Shown piece after piece: positions 85 through 46,537 of a stretch of 64,000 nt of DNA (its first letter is position 1; every line of letters begins with the position of its first letter). Below the pieces are notes generated by a model. The model was not told the DNA's origin and did no database searches. It saw only the letters and a program-made list of their open reading frames with translations. Both the position numbers and the translations under genes were made by a program. The stretch lies in the NCBI RefSeq assembly GCF_058153355.1, contig NZ_CM177019.1, one strand, 5' to 3'.

Positions 85-1041
85 TTAAACCACCCGATCC
101 AGCCCCAACATGCCGCGAGCCTGAATGAAACAGAGCAGCAACGTTCCCCATAAGGCCATCGTCAGGTAGGGGCTTATCCCGAGAATATTGAAGCCGCTTT
201 CAATAATTTGCAGAAGAAACAGCGCCAGCACCATACCAATTATCCGCCCGCTGCCGCCGTCCGGATTAACCCCGCCAAGTACTGCCGCGAGGATTGACAC
301 CAGCAAGTACGATTCGCCATAAGAGGCCTTAGCCGAGTTGAGTTTCGACATCATCAAAAATGCCGCTACCGCACAAAGCAAGGCGGAAATGACATAAACC
401 CAAATCAGCACCCGACGAGTGTTAATGCCGGAGTAAAGTGTTGCTCGTTCGTTAGAACCAATCAGATAAATGGCTTTACCGAGCGGCGTTTTCTCCAGCA
501 ATACCCACAGTCCCAGTGCCACTGCGGCAAACAACCACATCGGTAGCGGAATACCGAACCATTGCGCATGATTCAACCACAGCACCCATGAGGGATAATT
601 GGCAATGGCGCTACCGCCTGTCACCAGAATATTTACCCCCTTGAGCAACGTCATCATCCCAAGCGTTGCAAGAATTGGCGACACTCGAATACCAGCAATC
701 AATACGCCGTTACATAAACCGATTATCACCGCCGCGCCAGCGCCCGCCAGCAGCGTAGCGACAACCGTAGCAATACCCGGTGGATACTGAGTCGCCACCC
801 ACGCCATCACCAGTGAACAGGCGTTAGCAGTGGCAATAATTGACAAGTTAATGCCACCGCAAAGCATGGTCACCGCCATAGCCAACGCCAGAATGCCCAG
901 CACGGGCATTTGCGAAGCGACGGACTGGAAATTACTTATCGACCAGAAAATCTCCGGCATAGTAATGCTGAAGGCGGCAACAGTTAGCACCAGCAGGCCG
1001 ATCAAGTAAAACTCAACGTTATTACGCCACGATTTTTTCAT
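85..1041 (-). CDS. Sugar ABC transporter permease (CUT2 ribose/AI-2 type, LsrD/YjfF-like)
   Basis: ORF 85..1071 is hydrophobic and multi-spanning. Likely start is the ATG at 1039-1041 (MKKSWRNN...), overlapping the upstream gene's TGA as ATGA (translational coupling). Fourth gene of a binding-protein/ATPase/permease/permease operon. Confidence 0.8.
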   Translation of the reverse strand: MKKSWRNNVEFYLIGLLVLTVAAFSITMPEIFWSISNFQSVASQMPVLGILALAMAVTMLCGGINLSIIATANACSLVMAWVATQYPPGIATVVATLLAGAGAAVIIGLCNGVLIAGIRVSPILATLGMMTLLKGVNILVTGGSAIANYPSWVLWLNHAQWFGIPLPMWLFAAVALGLWVLLEKTPLGKAIYLIGSNERATLYSGINTRRVLIWVYVISALLCAVAAFLMMSKLNSAKASYGESYLLVSILAAVLGGVNPDGGSGRIIGMVLALFLLQIIESGFNILGISPYLTMALWGTLLLCFIQARGMLGLDRVV

Positions 1042-2009
1042 AGCAGACTCCGGTTCTGATGCTGACTCCACGCCGTGGCGCTAATGCTGGCAACGATGAT
1101 GATGCCTGTGATCAATGTTTGCCAGTAAGACGAGACTCCCAATAAATTTAGCCCGTTTTGCATCACAGCCAACAACACCACGCCGAGCAAAGTACCGGTT
1201 AACGTGCCGCGCCCGCCGAGCAAACTAGTGCCGCCAAGCACCACCGCAGCCAGTACTGTCAGCTCATAACCCAGAAGAGAATCGGGGGCGACAGTCATCA
1301 CCGTCCACGACTGCACTACCCCCGCAGCACCAGACATCAATCCCATATAGCCGTAAACGAAAAGTTGCAGTTTCAGCACGCTAAAGCCGATGCGACTGGC
1401 TGATTCACGGTTCCCGCCAAGGGCATAAATTTTGCGCCCTACACTGGTGAAATTCATGATAAACGCTGTCAGCAGCACCACCGTAATCATGGCGATCAGC
1501 GGCAGACCAAGGCCATAGTCATAGCCGTCAACATCGGTGTACTTGAACAACATTACCCCCTGCTCAAACCACGGCGGAAAGTCGTACAGCCACACACCTT
1601 TACTCAACCATAACAGCAGGCCATAGAAAATATTCAGCGTCGAAATGGTGATGATGATAGAAGGCACCCGTAGGCGATTAACCAGTAAGGCGTTTATTAA
1701 GCCAAGTAAAATGCCGATGCCGCCCGCCAGGGCAAACGCGACAGCAAAGTTGCCACCCATTTTTTGCAGCAACAGCACCATGCCGTATTGCGCAATGATG
1801 GTCATTGCTGGAAACGAAATATCAATTCCACCGGAAATTAACACCACAAACAAACCACAGGCGAGAATAGTCAACATGGCATAGTTATTGGCGAGATCGT
1901 ACAAATTACCGAATGTCAGAAACTCGTCGCTGCGCCAGGCAAGGCCAACAAACAGCACTATAATCAGTAATGCCAGCCAGAATTCATGGCGTTTTTTCAG
2001 TTCAGCCAT
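1038..2009 (-). CDS. Sugar ABC transporter permease (CUT2 type, LsrC/RbsC-like)
   Basis: 323-aa hydrophobic ORF, 8-bp overlap with the upstream ATPase gene; typical RbsC-family composition. Confidence 0.8.
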   Translation of the reverse strand: MAELKKRHEFWLALLIIVLFVGLAWRSDEFLTFGNLYDLANNYAMLTILACGLFVVLISGGIDISFPAMTIIAQYGMVLLLQKMGGNFAVAFALAGGIGILLGLINALLVNRLRVPSIIITISTLNIFYGLLLWLSKGVWLYDFPPWFEQGVMLFKYTDVDGYDYGLGLPLIAMITVVLLTAFIMNFTSVGRKIYALGGNRESASRIGFSVLKLQLFVYGYMGLMSGAAGVVQSWTVMTVAPDSLLGYELTVLAAVVLGGTSLLGGRGTLTGTLLGVVLLAVMQNGLNLLGVSSYWQTLITGIIIVASISATAWSQHQNRSLL

Positions 2010-3501
2010 TTACCACCTCCGCAATCCTGGCCTGAGAACTGCTGTCAGGCAGGAAGCTATGGGTGATCTGACCTTTTTGCATTACCAAAATCCGGTGGCT
2101 TTGATACCACGCTTCTTCAATTTCATCGCAGATCATCAATACCGCAATGCCATGAGCCGCCAGATCGCTGATAATGCCGTATATTCCTGCTTTGTTGGCG
2201 ATATCAACACCGACAGTCGGGCTATCGAGAATCAACAGTCGTGGCCCAATCGCCAGCCATTTGGCGATCGATACTCGCTGCGCGTTACCCCCGGAAAGCG
2301 TATTCACCGGGAGATGTGGGTCAGAGACTTTGATGGTCAATGCCTTAATTAGCCTGTCCACCAGGTCACGCACTTTAGCTTCACTCAGAAAGCCGAAGCG
2401 ATCTTTTACCTTGTGAAAAACAGTGCTAATGATGTTGTCTTCAATAGATTGCGCCATCACCAAACCGCGCGACATGCGATCTTCCGAAACATAACCAATA
2501 CCGTGGCGGATGGCGTCCTGGTTACTATGCAGTGTAACCGGCTGACCGTTGATGAGGATCTCACCAGCATCCGGTCGGGTCATACCAAACAGACTCAGAC
2601 ATAATTCCGTGCGCCCCGCACCAAGCAGGCCAACAATCGACACCACTTCGCCCGCTTCCACCCGCAAGTTAATATTTTGATATTCCCCATGACGACTTAA
2701 ATTACGCACCTCCAGCACTGGGTTGCTGGATTTTCCCTGCCACAACTCTCGCACCTGATATTCAAACTCCTGGCCGGTCATCAGGAAACCGAGTTGTTTT
2801 GTGGTCATCTCTGCAGCCGGAAAGGTCCCGACCAGCTCACCATCTTTCAACACTGAAATACGGTCGGAAACTTCCATCACCTCTTCCAGACGATGACTGA
2901 CGAAGACCACGCAGATCCCGCGTTCCCGCAATTGATGCACCACCTGTAATAACCCTTGCACTTCCTGATGGGTCAGCGAAGCGGTTGGTTCATCCATCAC
3001 GATCAACCGTGCGTCCTGCGCCAGTGCACGGCAAATTGCCACCAGCTGACAGCGGGCAATTGAAAGCTCAGAAACGAGCGTATCCAGTGGCAATGTGACG
3101 TTAATACTGGTCATTGCCGCCTGCGCCACCTCACGCAGACGACGTCGGTTAACAAACAGACCGTGGTGATAGTGATTCACGGCGATATTCTCCCAGACAC
3201 TCAGGTTAGGAAATAAAGAGAGGTCCTGATAAATCACCTGAATCCCCTGCGCCACCGAAGCGGCGGGTGTCAGCTTTGACCAGTTTTTCCCACCAAGCGT
3301 AATTTCCGCCCCCTCATCCGGGCGATAAACACCGGACATAATTTTAATCAACGTCGATTTACCACAGCCGTTTTGCCCGGCAAGGCAGTGCACCTCACCC
3401 GACATAAAGTCGAGAGAAACATCGCGCAGCGCTCGCGTGGCATGAAACGTTTTGTTGATATGACGAAGGGAAAGGAAGGTTTCCATAGCATCCCCTGGCA
3501 A
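2002..3501 (-). CDS. Sugar ABC transporter ATP-binding protein with two nucleotide-binding domains (RbsA/LsrA-like)
   Basis: 499 aa with two Walker A motifs (GQNGCGKST and GLLGAGRTE) and LSGG signature. An alternative start at METFLSL (3486) is possible. Confidence 0.85.
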   Translation of the reverse strand: MPGDAMETFLSLRHINKTFHATRALRDVSLDFMSGEVHCLAGQNGCGKSTLIKIMSGVYRPDEGAEITLGGKNWSKLTPAASVAQGIQVIYQDLSLFPNLSVWENIAVNHYHHGLFVNRRRLREVAQAAMTSINVTLPLDTLVSELSIARCQLVAICRALAQDARLIVMDEPTASLTHQEVQGLLQVVHQLRERGICVVFVSHRLEEVMEVSDRISVLKDGELVGTFPAAEMTTKQLGFLMTGQEFEYQVRELWQGKSSNPVLEVRNLSRHGEYQNINLRVEAGEVVSIVGLLGAGRTELCLSLFGMTRPDAGEILINGQPVTLHSNQDAIRHGIGYVSEDRMSRGLVMAQSIEDNIISTVFHKVKDRFGFLSEAKVRDLVDRLIKALTIKVSDPHLPVNTLSGGNAQRVSIAKWLAIGPRLLILDSPTVGVDIANKAGIYGIISDLAAHGIAVLMICDEIEEAWYQSHRILVMQKGQITHSFLPDSSSQARIAEVVNG

Positions 3502-3534
3502 TAAGAATCGGGGCTTTCGCCCCGAAGAAATGGA

Positions 3535-4521
3535 TTAATAAAGTGAGTCAATATTGTCTTTGTTGACCAGTAATACCTTATGGAAACGGATAATTCGCTT
3601 ATCCATATCTACGTCGGCCTTACCGAGATTCTCCATTTCTAATCCAGGTTTGATCTCTTCACCCTTCAGCAACGTGCTGGCGACGGCCGCGAGTGCGTAA
3701 CCTGCAGAGGCCGGATCGTAAGTAATCCCTTCGGTGATATCACCACTTTTAATCAGTGATGCCGCCTGTGAAGGGATCATCATGCCATAGACTGCGACTT
3801 TATTTTTCGCCCGTTTCTCTTTCACCGCACGTCCCGCGCCAATCGGACCGTTTGAACCAAAGGAGACAACCGCTTTCAAGTCAGGATAGGTTTTCATCAG
3901 GTCCAGTGTGGTACGACGTGAGTCATCCACACTCTCGGCAACCGGCATGCGGCGGGTAACTTCATGCATATCCGGGTAATGCTCTTTCTGGTATTTCACC
4001 AGCAAGTCAGCCCATAAGTTATGCTGCGGCACGGTCAAACTACCCACGTAAATCACATAGCCGCCCTTGCCACCCATGCGTTTCGCCATATGTTCAACAT
4101 ATTCAGCGGCAAATTTTTCGTTATCAATGATTTCGATATCCCAGTTAGCACTTGGCTGACCGGGGGATTCGTTGGTCAGAACCACAATTCCGGCATCTCG
4201 CGCTTTTTTGAATACCGGTTCCAGCACGTTGGCATCGTTTGGTACAATTGTAATTGCATTAACCTTACGGGCGATTAAATCCTCAATGATTTTAACCTGT
4301 TGCGGAGCATCAGTACTTGAAGGCCCCACCGGTGACGCATTAACACCAAAGGCTTTACCCGCCTCGACCACACCTTCGCCCATGCGATTAAACCACGGCA
4401 TACCATCGACTTTCGAGATATTCACCACGACTTTTTCCGCTGCCTGGAGCGGCGCAGAAATTAGCGCAGCGCCTAATAACAGCGAAGACACCATATTGAT
4501 AACAAAACGTTTATTCATCAT
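3535..4521 (-). CDS. Periplasmic sugar-binding protein (LsrB/RbsB-like, PBP type I)
   Basis: 328 aa with N-terminal signal peptide (LLLGAALISAPLQAAEK). Resembles LsrB in my recollection, including the C-terminal NKDNID motif. First gene of the operon on the minus strand. Confidence 0.85.
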   Translation of the reverse strand: MMNKRFVINMVSSLLLGAALISAPLQAAEKVVVNISKVDGMPWFNRMGEGVVEAGKAFGVNASPVGPSSTDAPQQVKIIEDLIARKVNAITIVPNDANVLEPVFKKARDAGIVVLTNESPGQPSANWDIEIIDNEKFAAEYVEHMAKRMGGKGGYVIYVGSLTVPQHNLWADLLVKYQKEHYPDMHEVTRRMPVAESVDDSRRTTLDLMKTYPDLKAVVSFGSNGPIGAGRAVKEKRAKNKVAVYGMMIPSQAASLIKSGDITEGITYDPASAGYALAAVASTLLKGEEIKPGLEMENLGKADVDMDKRIIRFHKVLLVNKDNIDSLY

Positions 4522-4772
4522 TTCAGCCTCATTGCAGGGTAGTCAGGAAGTGTTCGCCCAAATTAGCGCGCTGGAGAGAATAAGAATTTTTGAATATTTT
4601 TATGCAGAATAAACAGCCCTATTTCAGGCAGCTATTAAAAATTTGGTTATAAATATGGACAAAACGGGCAGTAACAATAAGTGATGACAATCATCACGTA
4701 AAAAATAGCAAAATAAACAAAATTAGCGATACTTTATGTTTGTGAGCTTATTTCGCGTAGAAAAATAGTTAT

Positions 4773-4898
4773 CTACACAATGTCAATAAGGGCATATTCT
4801 TCAAAGATAACGTCCATTTCGGGTGAATAGCATCCTTCTGCCTGGAAAAAACGACGGTGTTCATTGCGCCAATATTCAAGACTGAGGTCACCTTCACC
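4773..4898 (-). pseudogene. 3' remnant of an ASCH-like small gene split by the IS66-family insertion
   Basis: Removing the IS and one copy of the 8-bp duplication joins 7368..7660 in frame to this segment (..KEGEG-DLSLEYWRNEHRRFFQAEGCYSPEMDVIFEEYALIDIV, stop at 4773-4775), giving about 130 aa. The ASCH assignment itself is tentative. Confidence 0.6.
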
Positions 4899-4973
4899 GT
4901 AAGCGTCTTATCAGGACCGTCTGGCAAATTCCCGATGCTTTGGACAAAGTATCCACCACTAAATTAATAGTGG

Positions 4974-5402
4974 GTGATAAAAATGTCAGATATACAAAAA
5001 AATGCCTCTCCGGGAAGGCCTAAAGGGTGCCTGAATTATCCTCCTGAATTCAAACAACGACTCATAGAAGCATCATTCCAGCCAGGTGTTTCAATTTCCA
5101 GACTGGCCCTGGACAATGGTATTAATGCCAATCTGTTGTTCAAATGGCGTCAGAAATGGCGGCAGGGGAAGATAAAATTGCCATCATCAGAATCAGGCAG
5201 AGAATCTCAGTTAATTCCTGTCACTATTGATGCCCAACTCCCAACTGCTCCGGCTAATGAGCCACTGACCGCAAGACCGTCAGTAACACCGGAAATACAC
5301 AGCATCTCCTGTGAGATTACGTTCAGAAACGGCACCCTTCGGTTGAACGGGGCAGTGAATGAAAATCTGCTGTCCTTGCTTATACAGGAGCTGAGACGGT
5401 GA
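4974..5402 (+). CDS. IS66-family accessory protein TnpA (orf1)
   Basis: 142 aa, helix-turn-helix-like N-terminus; first ORF of the IS66 triad, 4-bp overlap with orf2. Confidence 0.85.
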   Translation: MIKMSDIQKNASPGRPKGCLNYPPEFKQRLIEASFQPGVSISRLALDNGINANLLFKWRQKWRQGKIKLPSSESGRESQLIPVTIDAQLPTAPANEPLTARPSVTPEIHSISCEITFRNGTLRLNGAVNENLLSLLIQELRR

Positions 5403-5746
5403 TATCTCTCCCTGCAGGTTCGCGTATCTGGCTGGTTGCAGGTATCACCGATATGCGAAATGGCTTTAACGGCCTGGCCTCAAAAGTTCAGAACGTCCTG
5501 AAGGATGACCCGTTCTCCGGGCATCTGTTCATCTTCCGCGGACGCCGGGGTGACCAGATAAAAGTGTTGTGGGCTGACAGTGACGGACTGTGCCTCTTCA
5601 CCAGACGCCTGGAGCGGGGCCGCTTCGTCTGGCCGGTCACCCGTGACGGCAAGGTGCACCTTACTCCGGCCCAGTTATCCATGCTTCTTGAGGGCATCGA
5701 CTGGAAACACCCGAAACGAACGGAACGCGCTGGCATCCGCATATAA
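5399..5746 (+). CDS. IS66-family accessory protein TnpB (orf2)
   Basis: 115 aa, conserved IS66 Orf2 sequence (..LFIFRGRRGDQIKVLWADSDGLCLFTRRLERGRF..). Confidence 0.85.
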   Translation: MISLPAGSRIWLVAGITDMRNGFNGLASKVQNVLKDDPFSGHLFIFRGRRGDQIKVLWADSDGLCLFTRRLERGRFVWPVTRDGKVHLTPAQLSMLLEGIDWKHPKRTERAGIRI

Positions 5747-5765
5747 CCCGTTGTAAAGTGAGGAT

Positions 5766-7337
5766 ATGGACACCTCACTTGCTCATGAGAATGCCCGCCT
5801 GCGGGCACTGTTGCAGACGCAACAGGACACCATCCGCCAGATGGCGAAATACAACCGCCTGCTCTCACAGCGGGTGGCGGCTTATGCTTCCGAAATCAAC
5901 CGGCTGAAGGCGCTGGTTGCAAAACTGCAGCGCATGCAGTTCGGTAAAAGCTCAGAAAAACTTCGTGCAAAAACCGAACGGCAGATACAGGAAGCACAGG
6001 AGCGAATCAGCGCTCTTCAGGAAGAAATGGCGGAAACGCTGGGTGAGCAATATGACCCGGTACTGCCATCTCCCCTGCGCCAGTCTTCAGCCCGTAAACC
6101 GTTACCTGCCTCACTTCCCCGTGAAACCCGGGTCATCCGTCCGGAAGAGGAATGCTGCCCGGCCTGTGGTGGCGAACTCAGTTCTCTGGGATGTGATGTG
6201 TCAGAGCAACTGGAGCTTATCAGCAGCGCCTTTAAGGTTATCGAAACACAACGTCCGAAACTGGCCTGTTGCCGGTGCGACCATATCGTGCAGGCTCCGG
6301 TGCCTTCAAAACCCATTGCACGCAGTTATGCCGGAGCGGGGCTTCTGGCCCATGTTGTCGCTGGAAAATATGCAGACCATCTGCCGTTATACCGCCAGTC
6401 AGAAATATACCGTCGTCAGGGCGTGGAGCTGAGCCGTGCCACACTGGGGCGCTGGACAGGTGCTGTTGCTGAACTGCTGGAACCGCTGTATGACATCCTG
6501 CGCCAGTATGTGCTGATGCCCGGTAAAGTCCATGCCGATGATATCCCCGTTCCGGTCCAGGAGCCGGGCAGCGGTAAAACAAGGACTGCCCGGCTGTGGG
6601 TCTACGTTCGTGATGACCGTAACGCCGGTTCGGAAATGCCTCCGGCGGTCTGGTTCGCGTACAGCCCGGACCGGAAAGGTATCCATCCACAGAATCATCT
6701 GGCCGGTTACAGCGGAGTGCTTCAGGCCGATGCTTACGGTGGTTACCGGGCGTTGTACGAATCCGGCAGAATAACGGAAGCCGCATGTATGGCTCATGCC
6801 CGGAGAAAAATCCACGATGTGCATGCAAGAGTGCCCACCGACATCACCACGGAAGCCCTGCAGCGTATCGGTGAACTGTATGCCATCGAGGCAGAGGTCC
6901 GGGGCTGTTCAGCAGAACAGCGTCTGGCGGCAAGAAAAGCCAGAGCCGCGCCACTGATGCAGTCACTGTATGACTGGATACAGCAACAGATGAAAACACT
7001 GTCGCGTCACTCGGACACGGCAAAAGCGTTCGCATACCTGCTGAAACAGTGGGATGCACTGAACGTGTACTGCAGTAATGGCTGGGTGGAAATCGACAAC
7101 AACATCGCAGAGAACGCCTTACGGGGAGTGGCCGTAGGCCGGAAAAACTGGCTCTTCGCGGGTTCTGACAGCGGTGGTGAACATGCTGCGGTGTTGTACT
7201 CGCTGATCGGCACATGCCGTCTGAACAATGTGGAGCCAGAAAAGTGGCTGCGTTACGTCATTGAACATATCCAGGACTGGCCGGCAAACCGGGTACGCGA
7301 TCTGTTGCCCTGGAAAGTTGATCTGAGCTCTCAGTAA
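5766..7337 (+). CDS. IS66-family transposase TnpC (orf3)
   Basis: 523 aa with N-terminal coiled-coil, CxxC...CxxC zinc-finger-like segment and DDE-type core; ends 30 bp before the right IR. Confidence 0.9.
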
Positions 7338-7367
7338 ATATCAATACGGTTCTGGCGAGCCGCTTAC

Positions 7368-7660
7368 CCTTCACCTTCCTTACGGGCAATCTCTTCGGTG
7401 ACATCAGAAAAGCGCAGTAAATGCAGGCCAATAACTCTGATAACACACACAGGCTCACCACGGCTATTTTCTACAATCTTATACTCACCAATCATCGGAA
7501 ATGCTTTGTCTTCAATACATCCTGCCAGCGAACCACAGGAAGCAGTTTTAACACCAGTTGCAATCAACGTTGCGAGGTAATCGGCCAACGCTGCTGAATC
7601 GCCAAAACTACAAAAGGAAGCATGGGGATATTTTTGTGAGATTTTTTCTTTTATGGTCAT
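7368..7660 (-). pseudogene. 5' portion of the IS66-disrupted ASCH-like gene
   Basis: 98-aa ORF whose stop codon (7364-7366) is supplied by the IS terminal repeat; the reading frame continues into 4773..4898 once the IS is removed. Confidence 0.6.
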
Positions 7661-7957
7661 GAGAATATTTTCGCGATTACGGAAAAAAAATCACATCTTA
7701 ATTACTGTTGATAACCATCAGCAAGAGGATCATTGGTTTTTCTATGTTTAATCTTTTTTATCCGAAGCAGGTCACATTTATGGCTTGATAAATACCTTTG
7801 TTAAAACTCACTTTTGTGTATTTCTCTCAAATAATCCCCTGGAAATTATGCCGGGAGATTATAAAGTTCAGGAGCATTCATTAACAAACCATTCCCGCCC
7901 CACTCCCTGGGGCTTAAATCTCTTACTATTCACCGTTGCAGACGTTTCAAATTCGTA

Positions 7958-8168
7958 TCAACCTGCCACACTTCCCCACACCAGTTGCCCTTTATGGAAC
8001 GTTGCGGTACATGGCGAAATACGCGCCACCGCCTCGGCGGAACAGGAGGCGTCCACCAGCACAAAGCTGGCGTCATCCTGCGCTTTTGGCCAAACACGCT
8101 CGCCTTTTTCATTGAGCGGCAATACATCGCCAGTGGCTAAAAACAGCGAGCGGGATAAATTCTGTTCG
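7958..8168 (-). other. yahJ: Out-of-frame C-terminal coding segment of yahJ (displaced by a +1 frameshift)
   Basis: The +1 frame immediately downstream of the yahJ stop encodes 70 aa (NEQNLSRSLFLATGDVLPLNEKGERVWPKAQDDASFVLVDASCSAEAVARISPCTATFHKGQLVWGSVAG) resembling the C-terminal beta-sandwich of amidohydrolases. 390 + 70 = 460 aa matches my recollection of the K-12 YahJ length. Confidence 0.6.
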
Positions 8169-9341
8169 TTAGGGCGAATTATAGAGCTGCGCGTACAGAT
8201 TGGCTTTTTCCAGCATGTCGCCCAGGCCGTAAGGCGACCAGTGGTCGATAACGCTGTCAGTTCCGGTCATCACTTTTACGCCTTTGTCGTGCAACTGTTT
8301 AAGCGGCATATGCAGCGTGCCAATCGGCACCGTCGAGGCGATCGAGATTTGCTGCGCCGCCATCCGGTTCGCCAGTTCATCTACCTGTTGCTCATTGAGC
8401 GTTGCCAGCGCAAAGGCGTGGCTGATAGTCAGTTTGCCTTTTAATTGCGGCGTTTTTTCCACTGTTTCAACCATATAATTGATGGCCGCCACGCCTGCCG
8501 GAGTGGTTTCATGCAGATGAATATCGACGCCTTTGTCGTAGTCCAGCGCAATCTGGAACATGGTGTCGAGGGATTTTTCCATCGCGCCATCGACACTGGT
8601 TGGGTCCAGCCCGCCAACGTAATGCGCGCCTGCCTGCATTGCTTCACGCATCAAGGGTTCCGATTTCGACAGCAGCAAACCGTGCTGCGGGAAGGCGACG
8701 ATTTCACAATCGAAGCCCGCCTGACGTCGCGCCAGCACCGCCTGCAAATTTTGCAGATTTTTCAGGCCGGAAACCGGTTCGATATTGCAGTGACTGCGGG
8801 CAATGGTGGTGCCTTTCGACTGCAATAGTTCGATCAGTTTTTCCGCCCGCTCCTGCGTGTACGGTTGTAACTCCGGCAGCATTTTCTGCTCGAGTTTGAT
8901 CATGTCCTGGATGGTGGTGCCTGCCGGGCGATTGAGCGAGCGCCAAGGCCCGCCGTAAAAGGTTTTGTCGAGATGAATATGCATGTCGCGGGTGGTGGGC
9001 AGCATCAGCTTACCGCCAGCGTCATAGTGCGGCAGCGTGGCGTCCGGATGCTGCTTGTTCTCGCGCAGGGTAACAATTTTGCCGTTCTGAATCTCTACGG
9101 TCTGGCGCGCCGTGCGGGTCTGCACCGCCATGCCATTTTCATAGTCAAAACCGGTTTCCAGCAGCACGTTATCGAGATAGTAATGCGGGTCAGTGATTTT
9201 CATGGTGTTATTCGCGTCGCAGTGGGTGGTGCCAGAGACTGCCGCATGGGCGAGCGGCACAGAAGTACCAAACAGCGCGGCGGCGGTGACCATCTTACCG
9301 CTCTGGCTCAAAAACTCACGACGGCTATTGTTTTCTTTCAT
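8169..9341 (-). CDS. yahJ: Tat-exported metal-dependent amidohydrolase/deaminase YahJ, truncated to 390 aa by a 3' frameshift
   Basis: Twin-arginine signal (SRREFLSQSG...AHA) and amidohydrolase motifs (HIHLDK, DxHLHE, GTDS). Position next to yahI matches K-12 order. The ORF ends early; see the 7958..8168 segment. Confidence 0.8.
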   Translation of the reverse strand: MKENNSRREFLSQSGKMVTAAALFGTSVPLAHAAVSGTTHCDANNTMKITDPHYYLDNVLLETGFDYENGMAVQTRTARQTVEIQNGKIVTLRENKQHPDATLPHYDAGGKLMLPTTRDMHIHLDKTFYGGPWRSLNRPAGTTIQDMIKLEQKMLPELQPYTQERAEKLIELLQSKGTTIARSHCNIEPVSGLKNLQNLQAVLARRQAGFDCEIVAFPQHGLLLSKSEPLMREAMQAGAHYVGGLDPTSVDGAMEKSLDTMFQIALDYDKGVDIHLHETTPAGVAAINYMVETVEKTPQLKGKLTISHAFALATLNEQQVDELANRMAAQQISIASTVPIGTLHMPLKQLHDKGVKVMTGTDSVIDHWSPYGLGDMLEKANLYAQLYNSP

Positions 9342-9350
9342 CTTACGTCC

Positions 9351-10301
9351 TTACGTTTTAATAATATGGGTGCCCGTTTCACCGCGCAGCGCCGCGGGCA
9401 GGCATTCCGGCGTGGTGATAATCACTTCTTTGCCGCCCTGTTCCAGGAACATCAGGCTGGCGATGATTTTTGGCAACATGCTGCCAGGCGGGAAATGCCC
9501 TTCCTGCATATAGCGGGTCATGGTGGCAACATCCACCCGATCGAGCGCCTGCTGCTGCGGTTTGCCAAAATGAATACAGACTTTTTCGACACCAGTGGTG
9601 ATCACCAGAATGTCGGCGTGAATTTCGCGGGCCAGCAGCGCGGTGGAGAGATCTTTGTCGATAACCGCGTCCACGCTTTGGTAATCTCCCGCGTCAGTAC
9701 GCACCACCGGAATTCCGCCACCGCCCGCACCAATCACCACAAACCCTTGTTGGATCAGCGCTTTAATGGCAGGTGCTTCAACAATACGTTTCGGTTCCGG
9801 CGAGGCGACCACGCGGCGATAGCCGCGTCCGGCATCTTCAACAAAACGCCAGTCAGGATTTGCCTTTTGTAATTCGTCACGCTGGCTGTCACTAAAGAAT
9901 GCGCCGATGGGCTTGGTGGGATGAGCAAATCCCGGATCGTTTTTATCCACTTCCACCTGAGTCACCACGGTGACGGCTTTTTTCTCGCCGTGACGCGCCA
10001 GCCGGTTATTCAGCGCCTGCTGGATCAGATAGCCAATGCCGCCTTGCGTATCCGCCACACAGTTCGCCAGCGGCGTTAAGGGCAGCCCTTCGCGCTCGTG
10101 GGCAATCTCCGCACGGCGTAGATCCAGCCCAACCTGCGGCCCGTTGCCGTGGGTCAGCACAATGTCGTAATCGGAAGCCAGCATTTCCAGCACCGTATCG
10201 GCCACGGCTTTCACCGCCTCCGCCTGATGCTCAATCGACTGGCTGGCGTTATCTTTGATAATGCTGTTGCCACCAATGGCAACGACCACAAGTTCTTTCA
10301 T
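9351..10301 (-). CDS. yahI: Carbamate kinase-like protein YahI
   Basis: 316 aa, N-terminal (V/I)xxGGN amino-acid-kinase motif (VVVAIGGNSI), carbamate kinase family; synteny with the yah cluster. Confidence 0.85.
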   Translation of the reverse strand: MKELVVVAIGGNSIIKDNASQSIEHQAEAVKAVADTVLEMLASDYDIVLTHGNGPQVGLDLRRAEIAHEREGLPLTPLANCVADTQGGIGYLIQQALNNRLARHGEKKAVTVVTQVEVDKNDPGFAHPTKPIGAFFSDSQRDELQKANPDWRFVEDAGRGYRRVVASPEPKRIVEAPAIKALIQQGFVVIGAGGGGIPVVRTDAGDYQSVDAVIDKDLSTALLAREIHADILVITTGVEKVCIHFGKPQQQALDRVDVATMTRYMQEGHFPPGSMLPKIIASLMFLEQGGKEVIITTPECLPAALRGETGTHIIKT

Positions 10302-10351: not shown

Positions 10352-11600
<1,249 letters not shown>

Positions 11601-11630
11601 CATGCCTGCAATCTGGGAAACCGGGGTAGA

Positions 11631-11900
<270 letters not shown>

Positions 11901-11920: not shown

Positions 11921-13339
11921 TCAGACGCCGTAACGTTCGCACCAGCCAAGAATGGCTTTTTCGAAGCAGGCGAAGGGTGGATGCACAATGCCCGCGCCAA
12001 TCATGCCGACGCCCGCATCTTTATGGGCAATGGCGGTGTTGATCACCGGCAGAATGCCACTGCTACCCACGCGGGTGATGTCGATTGCCGTCGGCACACC
12101 CATAAAACCGAGCAGCGGAATGGTCACGTTGGGGTTTTCGCCGAGAGTGATTTCGCGCATCTGACGGGAGAAATCGATAGCCTCTTCCACCGTACCGCCC
12201 ACCAGCGCGACGATTGCAGGCGCGGTCGCCATAGCAAATCCACCAATGCCGTAGGTTTCGGTGATGGCGCTGTCGCCGATATCCAGCCCCGAATCTTCCG
12301 GCTTATAACCGGCAAACATCGGGCCGATGACCTGCTGCGCCGGGCCGGTAAACCACTGCCCCGGTAATCCGCTGACTCGCAGGCCGAACTCGACACCGTT
12401 ACGCGCCATGGTGGTCACCACGGTGCTGTATTCAATGCCGTGCGCCGCATCCATCGCTGCTTTACACATTGCCATCCACGTCGGGCCGGAGAAGTAATCG
12501 CTGCTGGCGACAAACTCAAACACTTCGCGCTGTTGCTCGACAGAATAGCCCGCCTGAATAATCCCCGGCGTCAGCGCCTGAATCAGCAGCGTCGTCCCGG
12601 CGTTATTGCGGTTATGGCATTCATCGCCCATATGCAGCGCCTGCGCCAGCATCAAACGCAGATCAATCTCACCGAGAATTTTCATCGCGTCACGCAGCAT
12701 TGGCCCCTGCACATCGCGCATCCAGTTCAGGCGGTCAATCACGCTCTGATCGTTGGCACCCATACGCAAAATCTTCGCCATCTGCTCGCTCATATTGGTG
12801 TAAGCGATGTTGCCGTAGGTTTTGTTTTTCACGATGTGCATAAACATCGAGGCAGAGGTAACACCCGCCATCGAACCCACGCAGTCATGCTCGTGGCAAG
12901 GCGAGAAGGTGATCTCCCCGGAAGCCGCCAGTTCGGCCGCCTCGTCGAGATCTTTCGCCAGCCCTTCGAACACCAGCGCCCCGGTGACCGCGCCTTTCAT
13001 AGCGCCGCACATTTTTTCCCTGGTCACTGGTGGCCCGGCGTGAAGAATGGTTTTCGCCGTCATGCCTGGCACCACGTTAATCGCCTGATCAAAACCAATC
13101 AGCACCGGATGCGACTGGATAATGCGTTCCAGCGCCTGCTGGTTAGCGGCGGCGATTTTGTCTGCCAGCGGCGAATCGGCAATGTTGTCCAGCGCCTGCA
13201 CCACCTGCATATTGCCCTGCCCCGGCGGCGTCCAGTCGAGTTGGGTCACTTCTACATGCTGCTTTTTCAGGTCATCGCTAAACATGGCGATGCCGACGTT
13301 AATAACGTTCAACGGTTGGCTAAACAGTGACGGACTCAT
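11921..13339 (-). CDS. yahG: DUF1116-family protein YahG
   Basis: Long ORF 11921..13360; likely start MSPSLFSQPLNV (472 aa, as I recall for K-12), overlapping the yahF stop by 1 nt. Synteny. Confidence 0.8.
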   Translation of the reverse strand: MSPSLFSQPLNVINVGIAMFSDDLKKQHVEVTQLDWTPPGQGNMQVVQALDNIADSPLADKIAAANQQALERIIQSHPVLIGFDQAINVVPGMTAKTILHAGPPVTREKMCGAMKGAVTGALVFEGLAKDLDEAAELAASGEITFSPCHEHDCVGSMAGVTSASMFMHIVKNKTYGNIAYTNMSEQMAKILRMGANDQSVIDRLNWMRDVQGPMLRDAMKILGEIDLRLMLAQALHMGDECHNRNNAGTTLLIQALTPGIIQAGYSVEQQREVFEFVASSDYFSGPTWMAMCKAAMDAAHGIEYSTVVTTMARNGVEFGLRVSGLPGQWFTGPAQQVIGPMFAGYKPEDSGLDIGDSAITETYGIGGFAMATAPAIVALVGGTVEEAIDFSRQMREITLGENPNVTIPLLGFMGVPTAIDITRVGSSGILPVINTAIAHKDAGVGMIGAGIVHPPFACFEKAILGWCERYGV

Positions 13340-14886
13340 CAGGCTTCCTCCCCTTTGCAAATAAATTCACGCGCCAGCAATCCGGTATTGGTGCTGCTGC
13401 TGGCCAGAATCACCCCGGCATCAAGCAGCATCTGGCTTTGTTGTGCTAACGATGACGTATCGAGATCGGTACCCAGCACATAGGCGAGAATGATCAACTC
13501 GCGGCCTTCGGCGGCAGCGATCGCTTTCGCTTCTTTGATCGCCTCGATGGTGGAACCGACCGGATCTTCATGCGATCCAAATCCGAGCACAAAATCCATC
13601 ACGATCACCGCCACTTCTGGATCGCGCGCCTCTTCGATCAAGCGACTGATGCGGTTGGTGGGGTCAATCATTGGATGCGGCTTGCCGTTGGTGAAGTCGT
13701 CATCACCAAAGTCGAGGAAGGTATGTTTGATGCTGCGGTTGATATCTTGCAGGCGGAATTCAGGATCGGGCTGAATGTTGCTGTAGACATCGCCGTGTTT
13801 TTCCATCACCGCGAACATGGTTTCGTCGCACAGTGTGCCGCCGCAGAACAGGCCACGAATGTATTTCTGCCGCGGTTGCAGACGCGCCCGCACATCCGCA
13901 ATCAACGGCTGGTTCAGGATATGCAGGTCGAGATGTTCTTGTTTCACGCCGGAGAGCATCACCGCTTTCAATGCCGCCTCTTTACTGCCGCGGGCAAACT
14001 GTAGCCCCTGCTCATCCACTGGCGTTTCGCCACGACCGAGGAAGCAGACTACCACCGGCTTGCGGCAGGCACGTGCGCGTTCCAGCACTTTGCGGGCCAC
14101 CGCAGGCGCAGGCGGTTTGGAGATAAGCACAATGATTTCAGTTTGCGGATCGTTTTCCAGCATCCCGATGGCGTCGAGCATCATCAGGCCGCCGATTTTC
14201 TCGCTCAGGTCGCGCCCGCCGGTACCAATCAGTTGCGAAACGCCGCCGCCAAATTCATGAATACGGACGCTCAGTTCCTGGCTACCGGTGCCGGATGCGC
14301 CAACAATACCGATGTTGCCGCGACGCACAGCGTTACCAAAGCAGAGCGCCGCGCCGTTGATAATCGCCGTGCCGCAGTCTGGCCCCATCATCAGCAGCCC
14401 TTTTTCGTGGGCCAGTTGCTTGAGCGCCAGTTCATCTTCAACCGAGACGTTATCGGAAAACAGCATCACGTTAAGATCGTTTTGCAGCGCCTGACGCGCT
14501 TCGCGAGCGGCAAACAGACCGTTGACCGAAATCACTGCCAGGTTACTTTCCGGGATATGCTTTTTGGCGCTGGCAATAGTGGCATAACGCGCCTCGTGCG
14601 AGCCGCTTTGCGCTTTGCTGTTGAACAGTTCTTCAATCTCCACCAGCAACTGCTCGTTGTCTGCGCCCGCTTTGCCGTTGATGACAATCATCAGGTCGCC
14701 GTTTTTCGCCTGCTCCAGCTCCGGCGTCAGCAGCCCTAAATTCTTCAGCACGCCTTTGTTCATTTCGGTCGCCATCGCCACAAATGCCTGCTCGACGCCG
14801 TCGAGTTTATTTGCACGCGTGGAGATAGACATCAGCGAGACAGAATCAAAATAGGTATTCGGTTTAATGACTATTTTAACTGACAT
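13339..14886 (-). CDS. yahF: FdrA-like protein YahF (CoA-binding / succinyl-CoA synthetase-like fold)
   Basis: 515 aa with glycine-rich nucleotide/CoA-binding-like segments (GIVGASGTG, GGVSQLIGTGG); matches K-12 YahF length and position. Confidence 0.8.
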   Translation of the reverse strand: MSVKIVIKPNTYFDSVSLMSISTRANKLDGVEQAFVAMATEMNKGVLKNLGLLTPELEQAKNGDLMIVINGKAGADNEQLLVEIEELFNSKAQSGSHEARYATIASAKKHIPESNLAVISVNGLFAAREARQALQNDLNVMLFSDNVSVEDELALKQLAHEKGLLMMGPDCGTAIINGAALCFGNAVRRGNIGIVGASGTGSQELSVRIHEFGGGVSQLIGTGGRDLSEKIGGLMMLDAIGMLENDPQTEIIVLISKPPAPAVARKVLERARACRKPVVVCFLGRGETPVDEQGLQFARGSKEAALKAVMLSGVKQEHLDLHILNQPLIADVRARLQPRQKYIRGLFCGGTLCDETMFAVMEKHGDVYSNIQPDPEFRLQDINRSIKHTFLDFGDDDFTNGKPHPMIDPTNRISRLIEEARDPEVAVIVMDFVLGFGSHEDPVGSTIEAIKEAKAIAAAEGRELIILAYVLGTDLDTSSLAQQSQMLLDAGVILASSSTNTGLLAREFICKGEEA

Positions 14887-15739
14887 AATTCCCTCCGTAG
14901 GTTTGGCTCAGCGCACAACCATCGGCCATGCCATACAGCATGTCGCAACCGGAACTGGAGCCAATATGTTTAATTTTTTCTATTGCCTGAGTTGCGTTCC
15001 CAGGTATGTCATAAATAATGTTATGAATAAAACGATGAATATTTTCCCGGCAGCGTTGTTGTAATGCGGCTTCCAGCGTTATGGCACTTAATAACGTGGT
15101 ATTATTTCTGCCGCGTTGCAGACCGAGATAAAATTCCTCTTTGTATTTTTCCGCCGGATGCCCGGGAATAAATAAAATAAGCGCCAGACCTGTTAAATAA
15201 TCGTCGGCTGATGGCGTAAGGCCAATCCCTAACCCCATCATATTAGCAATCGCCAAAGCGATATTTTCTTTATCGTTTACGGCCTGAATAACAGCCCGTC
15301 GTTTAATATGTAATTCTTTTTTTAATGCCTGATAGAACGGGTTATCGCCACAATAATTAAACAGGGTTTCATTTTCCCCCAGGTGTTGATGAATAATGTC
15401 GTGCCACTGTTGCCATGCGATAAGGTGAAAATTTTCAGCGGTCATTTGCAAAGCTGGGGACAGCCAACGCTGGCAATGACTCATCTCTATATGAAGATGT
15501 TGACCAACCGTAATACCTTGATCATCAAACTGAACCTTATCACCATGACGGAACAGACCATCAAAGTGAGTGAGTGCCAACCGACAACTGTTTGGCGCAT
15601 TGTCGTACTCTTCACAAAGCAGCGTTAGCAACTGCTGGCGGGCCGGAAGTGCGATATTTACCGCTCTGGCAAAGACCTGTTCAACCTGTCCTTGCCCCCG
15701 CTGCGCCAGAAAATCAGCATCCGCAGTTAGCGCCCACAC
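14876..15739 (-). CDS. yahE: Uncharacterised protein YahE
   Basis: 287 aa; 11-bp overlap with yahF; synteny with the K-12 yahDEFG operon. Confidence 0.75.
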   Translation of the reverse strand: MWALTADADFLAQRGQGQVEQVFARAVNIALPARQQLLTLLCEEYDNAPNSCRLALTHFDGLFRHGDKVQFDDQGITVGQHLHIEMSHCQRWLSPALQMTAENFHLIAWQQWHDIIHQHLGENETLFNYCGDNPFYQALKKELHIKRRAVIQAVNDKENIALAIANMMGLGIGLTPSADDYLTGLALILFIPGHPAEKYKEEFYLGLQRGRNNTTLLSAITLEAALQQRCRENIHRFIHNIIYDIPGNATQAIEKIKHIGSSSGCDMLYGMADGCALSQTYGGNYVS

Positions 15740-15778: not shown

Positions 15779-16384
15779 TTATGCACCTGCGGCAATCAGT
15801 AACTGCGCAATCTCTTCAAAGCCTCGTTCCCGCGCCAGTTCCAGCGGCGTTTTACCATATTTATCCGTCATGTGCGGGCTGGCACCGTGTTCCAGCAATA
15901 ACTGGACAATCGCCTGCTGTTTTATCCCGCCATCGTTAAGCACAATCGCTTCCAGGAGTGGCGTCCAGCCAACATGGTTGGTCTGGTTAACGTTAATATC
16001 CGTATGCGTCAAAAGCTCTTTCACAATACTTAAATGACCTTTTTCACAGGCAGGCGTCAGGCCGACACCGCCGAAACGGGTTACACAATTAAGGTCTGGT
16101 TTAGCCGGTAAAATAATTCGTAGTAGCGTTAAATCACCGTTCAGGCAGCTAATTAAAAAAGGATTTTAACATATCTGATCTTGCTTATTAATATCCGCTC
16201 CGGCATCAATTAATGCCTGAACGCAAGCATATTGCTGATATAAACTTGCCAGCGTAATTGCCGTTTTCCCCTGACGATCGCTGGTATTAATATCGACACC
16301 CAGCGCAAGGCAGGTTTTTACTTTATCGATATCACCCTGTTGCGCAGCCAATAAATAGTCGGCAGGTAGATTTTTTATAGTCAT
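15779..16384 (-). pseudogene. yahD: Ankyrin-repeat protein gene yahD interrupted by an in-frame TAA (ochre) codon
   Basis: Two same-frame ORFs (16166..16384, 72 aa; 15779..16024, 81 aa) plus the 47 intervening sense codons total 201 codons, my recollection of K-12 YahD length. Single in-frame stop at 16166-16168 (..KQDQIC*NPFLISCLNGDLTLL..). Ankyrin motifs on both sides. Confidence 0.7.
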
Positions 16385-42288: not shown

Positions 42289-45200
42289 TTATTTCATCGC
42301 CTCCTCGCCCGTTGCCGTATTGGCATCCACCGCGGTAATGGTCACTGGCTTCATTTCGTACCCGCCATAGGTCAGGGCGTTAAATGTGAACGTATAGACA
42401 CCAGGCTTGCTGGTACTAAATGTACGCGTGATTTTTCCGCTCACGAAATGGTCATTTTTCGACGGCAGGAACTGATAATCCTTCTCCGTCACCCCTTCCG
42501 GCGTCTGAATGTCGACCCACATATTCCCGCCAACGGGGTTATTTGCCGACATCAGGGTCACCTCCAGCTTCGCAGTCGATTTCCCATCCGCCACCAGCGA
42601 AGGCACATTAGATGATGCGGTGAGCTGCGCGTTTTTATCATCCGCGACGAATTTAGCTTCGGCGGTTTTCGTTGATACCTGACCGTTGTTCTGACTCACT
42701 TGCGCCGTGAGTGTATATGTCGCCGCAACAGTCGTGGTGGCGGTGAAAATAGCCTGCCCTTGCTCATTCGTTGTCGCAGTGCCATTCGGTTCCAGGTTTA
42801 ACGAAGCCGGGCTGGCGGTCAGCGTCACTTCGCTATCTTTCACCAAATTCTTATTGGCATCAGTCACCGTAACTTTATACGTTTGTTTGGCTTTGCCGTC
42901 CGCCAGTGCATAGTTGCCAATCACCTCAATACTGGAGACGGTTGCGGTAGCCTTATCGGCTACAAACGTTATAGTCTGCGTATTCGAAGGCTGGCTATTC
43001 CCTGCCGATGCCGTGATCTCATACGTTCCGGCAGTCACTGAAACCACCTGCAACTCTGCTTTCCCCTCATCGTTGGCTTTCACCCAGACATTATCGCCAG
43101 TAAGCGGCTTGACACCCCGGGGCAGATTAAATGTCACCAGAGTTCCTGGAACAGGGTTACCGTTTTTATCCTCAACGGTCGCCGTCAGCGTAAAGGCATC
43201 TTTGCCGTTTGCCACTTTTTGAACGGCGGTGTCTACCTGCAGGTTTGCCTGACCGGTGCTGGCATCCGCGTTGAATTTCACCGTGACCGTCTTCTGAGAG
43301 TTTTTCACCGCGGCCGCGATTTCAAGTTCCCCTGCAACGGTTGATATCAACTCAATATCCGCTTTACCTGCCGCATTGGTTGTTACTGTATTCCCCGTCT
43401 TGCTAGTCACACCCTGCGGTAAAGTCAGCGTAACTTCTTGCCCCTGCAACGGGTTACCATAGCTGTCCACGACGGTCAGGGTTACCTGGTTAGCAGACTG
43501 TCCATTTGCCAGTTGGTTATTCACCTTCACCGCCATATCACTGATCACTGCCCGGGAAGCGTCGCCTGCAACATTCAGCACCAATGGCTGAGCAACGGCA
43601 TTTTGGCCGTTCACGCGTGGCATGACAGACAACTGACCTGCAGCCGATCCCAGCGTTAAGGTCGCCACGTAGACCCCATTACCTTTCTCTGTCCAGTTTC
43701 CTGCTGAAGGACGCTCACTCCCCGTGCTGGCGGCACCGCTAAACACGGGTGCATCGAGTTTCAGGTTACTAACAGGGTTGCCATACGCATCCTTCACGGT
43801 GAAGGTAAGTTCCGTCGTCGTTTTAACCGTTGGAGTCTTATTGTCCGCAACAAGCGTAGAGTTCGCTGATGACATCTCCCCGGCGATGACCGTCAACTGC
43901 GCGGCTTCGGTGGCTGCTGGCTGGCCGTTGAAGAGCGGCATGACACGAAGCTCGCCCGTCTTTCCGCCTGTGGTCAACGTAGCAACATAGGAACCGTCAC
44001 CTTTTTCGGTCCAACTGGAAATAGTCGCCCCTTCAGAGGCGGTCCCCGTCAAACTTGCCGACAACGAAAGACCACTGATAGCGTTGCCATGCGCATCTTT
44101 CGCCACCAGCGTCACGGTTGTGCTTTCGCCTGCTTTTACGCGATCTGCGGCTACAGACACTGTCGACTGGCCTGAAGATAACGCATCAGCCACCACGGTT
44201 ACTTTTGCCGCGTTTGCTGCCGCATCCTGTCCATTTAACTTCGGCATAACTTCTAATTCACCCGCCGTAGAGCCGAGAGTAATCTGCGCAGTCCACGTCC
44301 CATCACCATTATTTGTCCAGCCAGATGCCGTAGAACCTGCAGCGGCTGCGCCCGATAATGACGGCGCTTCCGGCGTGAGGCTGGTCACAGGGTTGTCATA
44401 GGCATCTTTTGCCGACCAGATTGCCGTAACTGTACCGCCAACCACCGGTTTATCCGGATTCAGGGCGATGGTCGAATGTGATGCATCAAGCGGCCCGGCG
44501 ACAAATTTCAGCGTTTGTTGTAATGTGCCCAGCTGATACTGCTCGCTGAAGGCACGCACAACAACGTTTCCGGCACGGGTCGAAGAAACCGTGGCGCTGT
44601 AAACCCCGGGTTTTATTTCCGAAATGGCACCAACGGTAACACCATTAGTGTCTTGCGGAACAAGTCGCAGGCGGCTGGCTTCTCCCGTCACCGGATTACC
44701 CTCGGAGTCCACCGCAGTCAGCGTCAGCGTGTAGGCTTGCTGACCATCAGCAACCACGTCACCTGACGGCTCGTTAGCGCTCAGGGGGGAGTTTGCCACA
44801 TCCATCATCGTGGCCCGCAGTTCTGCAGTGACGGTTTTGCTCATGCCATCAACGCTAACAGTAATCGTTGCCTCACCTGACTGCGTTCCGGTCGTAAAGA
44901 CAGACTGGTACACCCCTGCTTCAGTTTCGGTGAACTCACCCAGTGTGGGTTTTGCCTGTGATTTAGTGGCCTTCAGGGTACGAGTCACAATATTTCCAGC
45001 CGGTTTGAAGGATAGTTCAGTCTTGATCTGATCTTTCATGCCCTTGACTGGCTGGCCCGCTGCGTCGCGCAGAGACAGCACCAGCGGCTTTTGCTCATTA
45101 CCGTTAGCAAGCATTTGAATACGGCTCTGACCGTCAAGCGTTAACGCCGTGCGATCGGCGCTCATACCAGCTCCGGTAATAACCACTTCTGTCTGCACTC

Positions 45201-46537
45201 GTTTCGAGGCATTGCCTTTGTTATCGTAGGCAACTGCTGAAATCGCATAATAATTGTCTTTGCCTGGACGGTAAGCCGGGAGCGTTACTTGCCACTGACT
45301 ACCCTGACCGGTAATTTTGCCACCTTCAGCCAGTAATGACGGCGCTTCCCACTGCACATTTTTCAGTCCGTGAGTTGCTTTGCTGACCACAAGCCCCAGG
45401 GGAAACCGTCTGACAGCCCTTGCCTTCAATACGCTCAGGAAGAGCAATACGGATCACTTCTGATTTGCGGTACTCAAGAATGATATTGTTATTACGCTCA
45501 ACCAGGTCATAGCGGCTGCCGGCCAGTACCCGACGCTCGCGAATGCTATCCGTATCGAGTTGTTTCTCCAGAGGTTCGCCAATTCGGTAGTTAACTTCCA
45601 GGCCAAAGCGAGTGTCATTCTCACCACTCTTGCCCTGCTTATGCCCGGCGCTCAGTGTCAGAAGAGGCACTGGCGTATAGGTTACCTCGGCAGAAATAGC
45701 ATGCGGGTCTTTCTGGCGTTTATCTTTGCCAAACAGCCCGACTTCATCGCCATAATACTGCTCATACATCAGGCTTGCGCCAAGCTGCGGCCAGGCGGGT
45801 AAATAGCCCTCAGCACGAATATCCCAGCCATTCGCCGGGCGTTCCTGATAATCCTCAACATCCGGCGATTTTTTCCAGCCAGAAGCCCGGATATAACCAT
45901 TGGCGCTCAGTTTCAAATAATCACGCCAGTATTCCGCACCAACACCAATGCGGGTATGACTACGGGATAAATCATGATCGATAAAAGTATTCACCCCCGC
46001 CATCCAGTCATTTCCTGAAAAATGACGCCAGCCAAAACCAATATTTGACTGAGTACGATCGTCGGTACGATGTATTGCCCCCTGAGTGAACAACATATTT
46101 GTCGGCGTGTCATAAATCGGATAAAGCATTTCCAGCGAAGAGTCCTTCAGCGAGAAATTTTTATCGACATTCAGTTTGACGCGCGCAGTACCGTATTTCC
46201 CGAGCCACTCCTGTATTTCCTGGTTAGCTTTAACTGCGGCCATTCCGGTAATAAAGTTACGTGTCGCATCGCTATCTGGCTGACTGCTTAAAAATGTCCC
46301 GGCATTTGCGGCAAACGACGCGACATTTTTCTCCACATTATTATCAGCAGCTACCGTGGTATTTTCCATGCTCAGCCGTGGCTGAACCGCATGCTGCGCG
46401 CGTGCTGCCATTACTGGGGTAAAGGTGACAGCGAGTGGAAAAAGAACCTGAACAGAGATATTTGCCCACGCCACGCAGCGGGCCAGAACTGAATAACGAA
46501 ATCGTGGTTGTTTATGACCTGTTTTATAACGTGACAT
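42289..46537 (-). pseudogene. eaeH: Intimin/invasin-family adhesin EaeH (FdeC-like) split by a frameshift into two overlapping ORFs
   Basis: ORF 45326..46537 (403 aa: signal, LysM-like region, outer-membrane beta-barrel) and ORF 42289..45447 (1052 aa of Big/Ig-like repeats) overlap by 122 nt in different frames. The overlap contains C4 and G4 runs at 45394-45402. Confidence 0.75.

Follow-up and report, generated by a model that had tools for sequence, protein, structure and literature searches.

In this study, we found that yahD is very probably a recent lineage-specific pseudogene in the genome analysed here, inactivated when codon 73, TTA or TCA before, became TAA through a single transversion at its second position. 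The analysis was performed on a window of 64,000 nt (contig NZ_CM177019.1, assembly GCF_058153355.1), to which all positions refer. The yahD locus in this window is composed of the following features:

15779..16384, minus strand: yahD pseudogene, colinear with the gene of the E. coli ankyrin-repeat protein YahD; 201 codon positions, then the terminal stop.
16166..16168, minus strand: premature TAA at yahD codon 73; TTA (Leu) or TCA (Ser) in relatives, TTT or TTC (Phe) in most other Enterobacterales.
16169..16384, minus strand: N-terminal stub of 72 sense codons that is still translatable, covering ankyrin repeats 1–2, with a Pfam Ank match at residues 39–69.
15782..16165, minus strand: untranslated remnant, codons 74–201 with ankyrin repeats 3–6, in frame and without further lesion.
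16022..16024, minus strand: GTG at codon 121, the start of a mechanically called 81-aa ORF; a private synonymous change from GTA to GTG.

Read from 16384 on the minus strand, a single frame runs through 72 sense codons to a TAA and then through another 128 to its terminal TAA; the plus strand reads 'tta' at 16166–16168, which is the in-frame TAA on the yahD strand. The first-pass annotation had described two same-frame fragments separated by one stop, and the ORF list gives both pieces (16166..16384, 72 aa, ATG start; 15779..16024, 81 aa, GTG start) with 47 sense codons between them, so that the sum of 72 + 1 + 47 + 81 = 201 checks out. Ankyrin sequence, also claimed for both sides of the stop, was confirmed there by Pfam matches (Ank_2, Ank_4 and Ank). 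For the conceptual 201-aa product, Ank_2, Ank_4, Ank, Ank_3 and Ank_5 all scored above their cut-offs, and the 72-aa stub by itself also matched ankyrin families. The conceptual product was 95.5–97% identical (protein, residues 1–201) to the E. coli YahD sequences compared, and by these alignments the identity of the frame to YahD is far above chance.

E. coli YahD (K-12 b0318, UniProt P77736) is an ankyrin-repeat protein encoded at the same locus, divergent from yahC-yahB and upstream of yahE-fdrA(yahF)-yahG-yahI-yahJ. The window gene has the same ankyrin Pfam matches and the same 201 codon positions, but its codon 73 is TAA, not TTA or TCA, and only 72 residues are translatable. The host belongs to a divergent Escherichia lineage, and its yahD DNA is accordingly only 94.7–96.4% identical to the yahD genes of E. 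coli with which it was compared. Ankyrin repeats along the length, about 201 colinear codons and the conserved locus position, by which the YahD family is recognised, were all present; the uninterrupted frame was not, and because of the TAA at codon 73 the locus was filed as a pseudogene of the family and not as a functional member.

The position of the host was examined in the complete E. coli genomes. The 761-nt region matched yahD/yahE in 5,077 of the 5,426 genomes with an identity of at most 97.0%, and the best E. coli matches reached 94.3–96.0% over 20 kb around yahD and 97.1% over 28–48 kb; no near-identical complete genome was found among these 5,426 (best about 94–97%). Over 6.6 kb, the identity to the window was 96.4% for E. 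coli 2012C-4502, 95.2% for Escherichia sp. E1V33, 92.6% for E. whittamii and 89.8% for E. albertii. These identities place the host in a divergent E. coli-like lineage, seen here in a few draft assemblies (GCA_015332025.1 and SRR28786219).

The lesion had been read as a nonsense substitution, and this reading, as opposed to an indel, stood after base-for-base alignment to E. coli yahD, in which the coding region was without gap; against two E. coli yahD genes, the sole gap in the 761-nt alignment was 1 nt, located ahead of the start codon. When one genome per species was scanned, 80 yahD loci were found among the matches listed, from Escherichia, Kluyvera, Citrobacter, Klebsiella/Raoultella, Enterobacter, Buttiauxella, Serratia, Providencia, Proteus and others. 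Neither homologues of about 72 aa nor homologues with the same stop, which the first-pass annotation had named as evidence against its reading, were found in these 80 species-representative genomes, where the frames were open with 201 codons (202 in one). With further homologues added to the 80 representatives, all 82 intact genes were uninterrupted (81 with 201 codons, one with 202); codon 73 encoded Phe in 69, Leu in 10, Ala in 2 and Ser in 1, and none of the 82 had a stop at this codon. A length of 201 aa was also that of most of the best 120 protein clusters listed in a search of 5.8 billion proteins.

Alignment to relatives, which had been proposed for identifying the ancestral codon at 16166–16168, gave TTA (Leu) or TCA (Ser) by haplotype; the TAA of the window is TTA in E. 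coli 2012C-4502 and TCA in E. coli 042. TTA was further present in E. coli W150 and 90-9280, E. albertii, E. whittamii, Escherichia sp. E1V33 and Kluyvera, and on this comparison TTA is the deep ancestral state of the codon. TCA was found on an E. coli haplotype family with Ile71 (042 and 7/2), and the window shares Ile71 (ATA). E. coli LR-28 has the CAG-ATA-TGT context of the window, but with TTA at codon 73, and the closest E. coli haplotypes (Q70-I71-C72) mostly carry TCA there, with TTA in one. The TAA lies one second-position transversion from TTA or TCA, and the immediate ancestor may have been either one. Synthetic 72-nt queries, identical to the window except for TCA or TTA at codon 73, were run against the 5,426 E. 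coli genomes and had no exact match among them, the best being two mismatches each; the neighbours were many for the TCA type and a single genome (LR-28) for the TTA type. Likewise, intact versions of the window's yahD protein, in which position 73 was set to L, S, Y or Q, had no exact match in a collection of 15 billion proteins. A k-mer by which codon 73 could be typed in Escherichia assemblies is GATCAGATATGTTNAAATCC.

Two further observations were made around this codon. Codons 70–73 (16166–16177) form a small hypervariable patch within Escherichia, with the residues HTCL, QICS, QICL, LTCL, HICL, QTSL or KTCL; turn positions like these, opening an ankyrin repeat, are of the kind that contacts ligands in ankyrin proteins. 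In E. coli LR-28 (NZ_AP027512.1, 217–825), the annotated yahD is 609 nt long, begins with GTG and reads VNDYKNLP... instead of MTIKNLP..., its N-terminus being shifted because of a 1-nt deletion near codon 3.

Ankyrin repeat 2 covers residues 39–69 (Pfam), and C72-L73-N74-P75-F76-L77 aligns with G-x-T-P-L-H of consensus designed ankyrin proteins. By this alignment, codon 73 is the variable 'x' turn residue opening ankyrin repeat 3, which fits the natural L/S/F/A polymorphism. The stop falls at the first residues of repeat 3; translation would end after 72 residues, leaving a two-repeat stub that lacks both the C-terminal cap and the other four repeats, and YahD would be lost. In repeat-protein folding, a two-repeat fragment is poorly suited to stability or function, and on this basis the stub is most likely non-functional or unstable. 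Two structures aligned over nearly all of YahD and are possible structural templates, namely PDB 5d66_A ('Uncharacterized protein', 198 aa, E = 1.6e-41) and PDB 3hra_A ('Ankyrin repeat family protein', 201 aa).

Besides the stop, the private amino-acid changes in the window yahD were C35S and A126T, both at columns variable among homologues. The other private changes were synonymous (codons 121, 143 and 154), and those at codons 142 and 177 were also present in one other lineage. The sole strongly conserved column at which the gene departs is 71 (Ile instead of Thr), where some intact E. coli alleles do likewise, and no second lesion was found along the 201 codons. Since the private changes are mostly synonymous or at variable columns and a second lesion is absent, the inactivation appears recent; by this pattern of substitutions, yahD has been under purifying selection through most of the history of the lineage and the stop is recent. 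Its age is bounded only loosely, because no intact version of the lineage's allele was found in the 15-billion-protein collection.

The gene yahD is the first of yahD-yahE-fdrA(yahF)-yahG, followed by yahI and yahJ, in the same order as in E. coli. The neighbouring features are:

14876..15739, minus strand: yahE, AllH family, 287 aa, intact, starting 39 nt downstream of the yahD stop.
13339..14886, minus strand: fdrA/yahF, AllF-like, 515 aa, intact.
11921..13339, minus strand: yahG, AllG-like, 472 aa, intact.
~10379–11658: IS621 copy (IS110 family) between yahI and yahG, in a REP cluster; transposase ORF 10571–11551 on the plus strand with DEDD_Tnp_IS110 and Transposase_20 domains.
9351..10301, minus strand: yahI, carbamate kinase family, 316 aa, intact.
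7958..9341, minus strand: yahJ, amidohydrolase, the second broken gene of the cluster; +1 frameshift that leaves an ORF of 390 codons, against 460 in E. coli.

Of the 80 species-representative loci listed, 79 have an fdrA-like gene after yahD, which indicates that YahD is a conserved part of the cluster. AllF, AllG and AllH are the families of the oxamic transcarbamylase subunits encoded in the allFGH cluster (PMC11326118), and this cluster (fdrA-ylbE-ylbF) occurs with the carbamate kinase gene allK (PMC11326118, PMC9843812). In the same manner, the products of yahE, fdrA and yahG match the AllH, AllF and AllG Pfam families, and yahI, a gene of the carbamate kinase family, follows; Pfam matches and gene order make an allFGH-type pathway the likely context of YahD. 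The yah cluster is a paralogue of allFGH in which the gene of an ankyrin protein comes first. The yah paralogues are not discussed in the allFGH paper (PMC11326118), and a literature search for yahD gave incidental mentions only, with no function reported.

The frameshift in yahJ is caused by an extra A near 8177–8181, the window reading 'CTCTATAATTCG' and E. coli W150 'CTCTAT-ATTCG'; the exact 390-aa truncated product was also found on a Logan contig. The yahD stop and the yahJ frameshift are two independent inactivating point lesions and therefore suggest relaxed selection on the whole pathway, with loss of function of the entire yah cluster under way in this lineage. Since yahE, fdrA, yahG and yahI are intact, however, the whole cluster is not clearly dead. 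The IS621 transposase is 98.5% identical (protein) to that of the copy in E. coli W150, which is inserted at the same site. E. coli E04 has no insertion there, and its REP cluster has one REP unit fewer than that of the window.

Elsewhere in the window, two other genes were found to be disrupted. Downstream of yahJ, an ASCH-domain gene (window ~4776–7660) is split into the fragments 7660..7367 and 4931..4776 by about 2.4 kb with an IS66-family element, of which the ORFs (4974–5402 and 5766–7337) include a 523-aa DDE_Tnp_IS66 transposase and an HTH_Tnp_1 ORF; the distal fragment of the ASCH gene has two stops. The inverse autotransporter adhesin gene fdeC (42292–46537, minus strand; 1417 aa in E. 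coli HCP5S3_I2) lies in two frames, with an apparent frameshift near 45395–45399, where a C-run reads CCCC instead of CCC and a homopolymer sequencing error is possible.

The stop may have an effect beyond yahD itself. It would leave 384 nt of mRNA untranslated before yahE, with an intergenic gap of 39 nt, and we infer that this may lower the expression of yahE-fdrA-yahG via Rho-dependent polarity. A different effect would follow if the base that creates the stop also creates a promoter. A sense-strand sigma-70-like match at 16191..16163 consists of TTAATA, 17 nt and TG-n-TAAAAT, in which the mutated A is the −11 A at hexamer position 2, and an antisense match over the same base reads TTAACA-17-TAATAT (both within 16163–16194); intact alleles that share the local context have neither match. 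Under such a reading, the predicted promoter, if active, would uncouple yahE-fdrA-yahG from the native promoter in the same step that deletes YahD, which would be adaptive rewiring and not decay. The number of promoter-like matches in the region was not above the shuffled expectation (2 vs 1.4 ± 1.2), so the matches were treated as coincidence and we consider the rewiring very unlikely.

We regard the yahD stop as an ordinary nonsense pseudogene of a known, uncharacterised gene and not as a new kind of feature. Lineage-specific nonsense pseudogenes are a general phenomenon in Escherichia/Shigella genomes. As in those cases, an accessory gene has acquired a premature stop by a single point mutation, close isolates have the allele in common, other lesions are present in neighbouring genes and IS elements are close by; nothing distinctive separates yahD from them, except that the host is E. 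coli-like and not Shigella.

A split but functional gene, producing the 72-aa two-repeat N-terminal product, an 81-aa C-terminal product from the codon-121 GTG, or both, is very unlikely. Such a split would agree with the ankyrin scores that the 72-aa and C-terminal pieces each retain, with the undamaged downstream part, and with the GTG being private to the window's lineage (codon 121 is GTA in 7 of 7 Escherichia sequences compared, GTT in Kluyvera and GTG in the window only). The change from GTA to GTG is synonymous in the intact frame, however, and the Shine-Dalgarno-like AAAGG is not properly spaced, with its nearest GG 13 nt upstream of the GTG; translation would need to restart 47 codons past the stop, and no other homologue among the 80 species-representative loci listed has a split architecture. 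The absence of decay is explained equally well by a recent mutation. The 81-aa ORF arises from the rule by which ORFs were called, and we do not regard it as a gene.

Read-through or suppression of the stop, with full-length YahD still made, is highly improbable. All 128 codons after the stop are open, as it would require, but the stop is conserved in no relative examined (80 species-representative loci listed), the RNA fold downstream of it is no better than that of shuffled sequence (z = −0.94), and no tRNA gene, hence no suppressor candidate, was found within the window. Programmed read-through or recoding is recognised by a conserved stop and a downstream signal, and neither was found at yahD. 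In E. coli, both release factors read UAA, which is the least leaky of the stop codons.

The allele was also present in other assemblies. A 606-nt yahD identical to that of the window, TAA included, was found in the Logan assembly SRR28786219 and in NCBI GCA_015332025.1, and the exact 72-aa product was recorded on contigs of Logan assemblies. Over 5961 nt, GCA_015332025.1 differs from the window by one base, at window position 13299, which makes it a separate assembly, of a very close relative. There is no product on record for its yahD stretch, which presumably reflects treatment as a pseudogene there. The first-pass annotation had judged a sequencing artefact unlikely, and the recurrence of the allele in independent public assemblies agrees with this. 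An error of sequencing or assembly, with yahD intact in the organism, is scarcely credible as the source of the TAA: the lesion is a single base and two other lesions of the window are 1-nt insertions, the fdeC one in a C-run of the type that some platforms miscall, but the yahD lesion is a substitution and not a homopolymer indel, and its 606-nt sequence recurs in SRR28786219 and in an assembly separable from the window by a SNP elsewhere.

For annotation, yahD should be recorded as a pseudogene here, with no separate genes called for the 72-aa and 81-aa ORFs. The allele is a natural knock-out of YahD, an uncharacterised ankyrin protein whose gene comes first in a conserved AllFGH-like cluster. 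Should a search for the yah substrate be undertaken, the strain could be used as a natural control. Together, the yahD stop and the yahJ frameshift hint that this divergent Escherichia lineage no longer needs the yah pathway.
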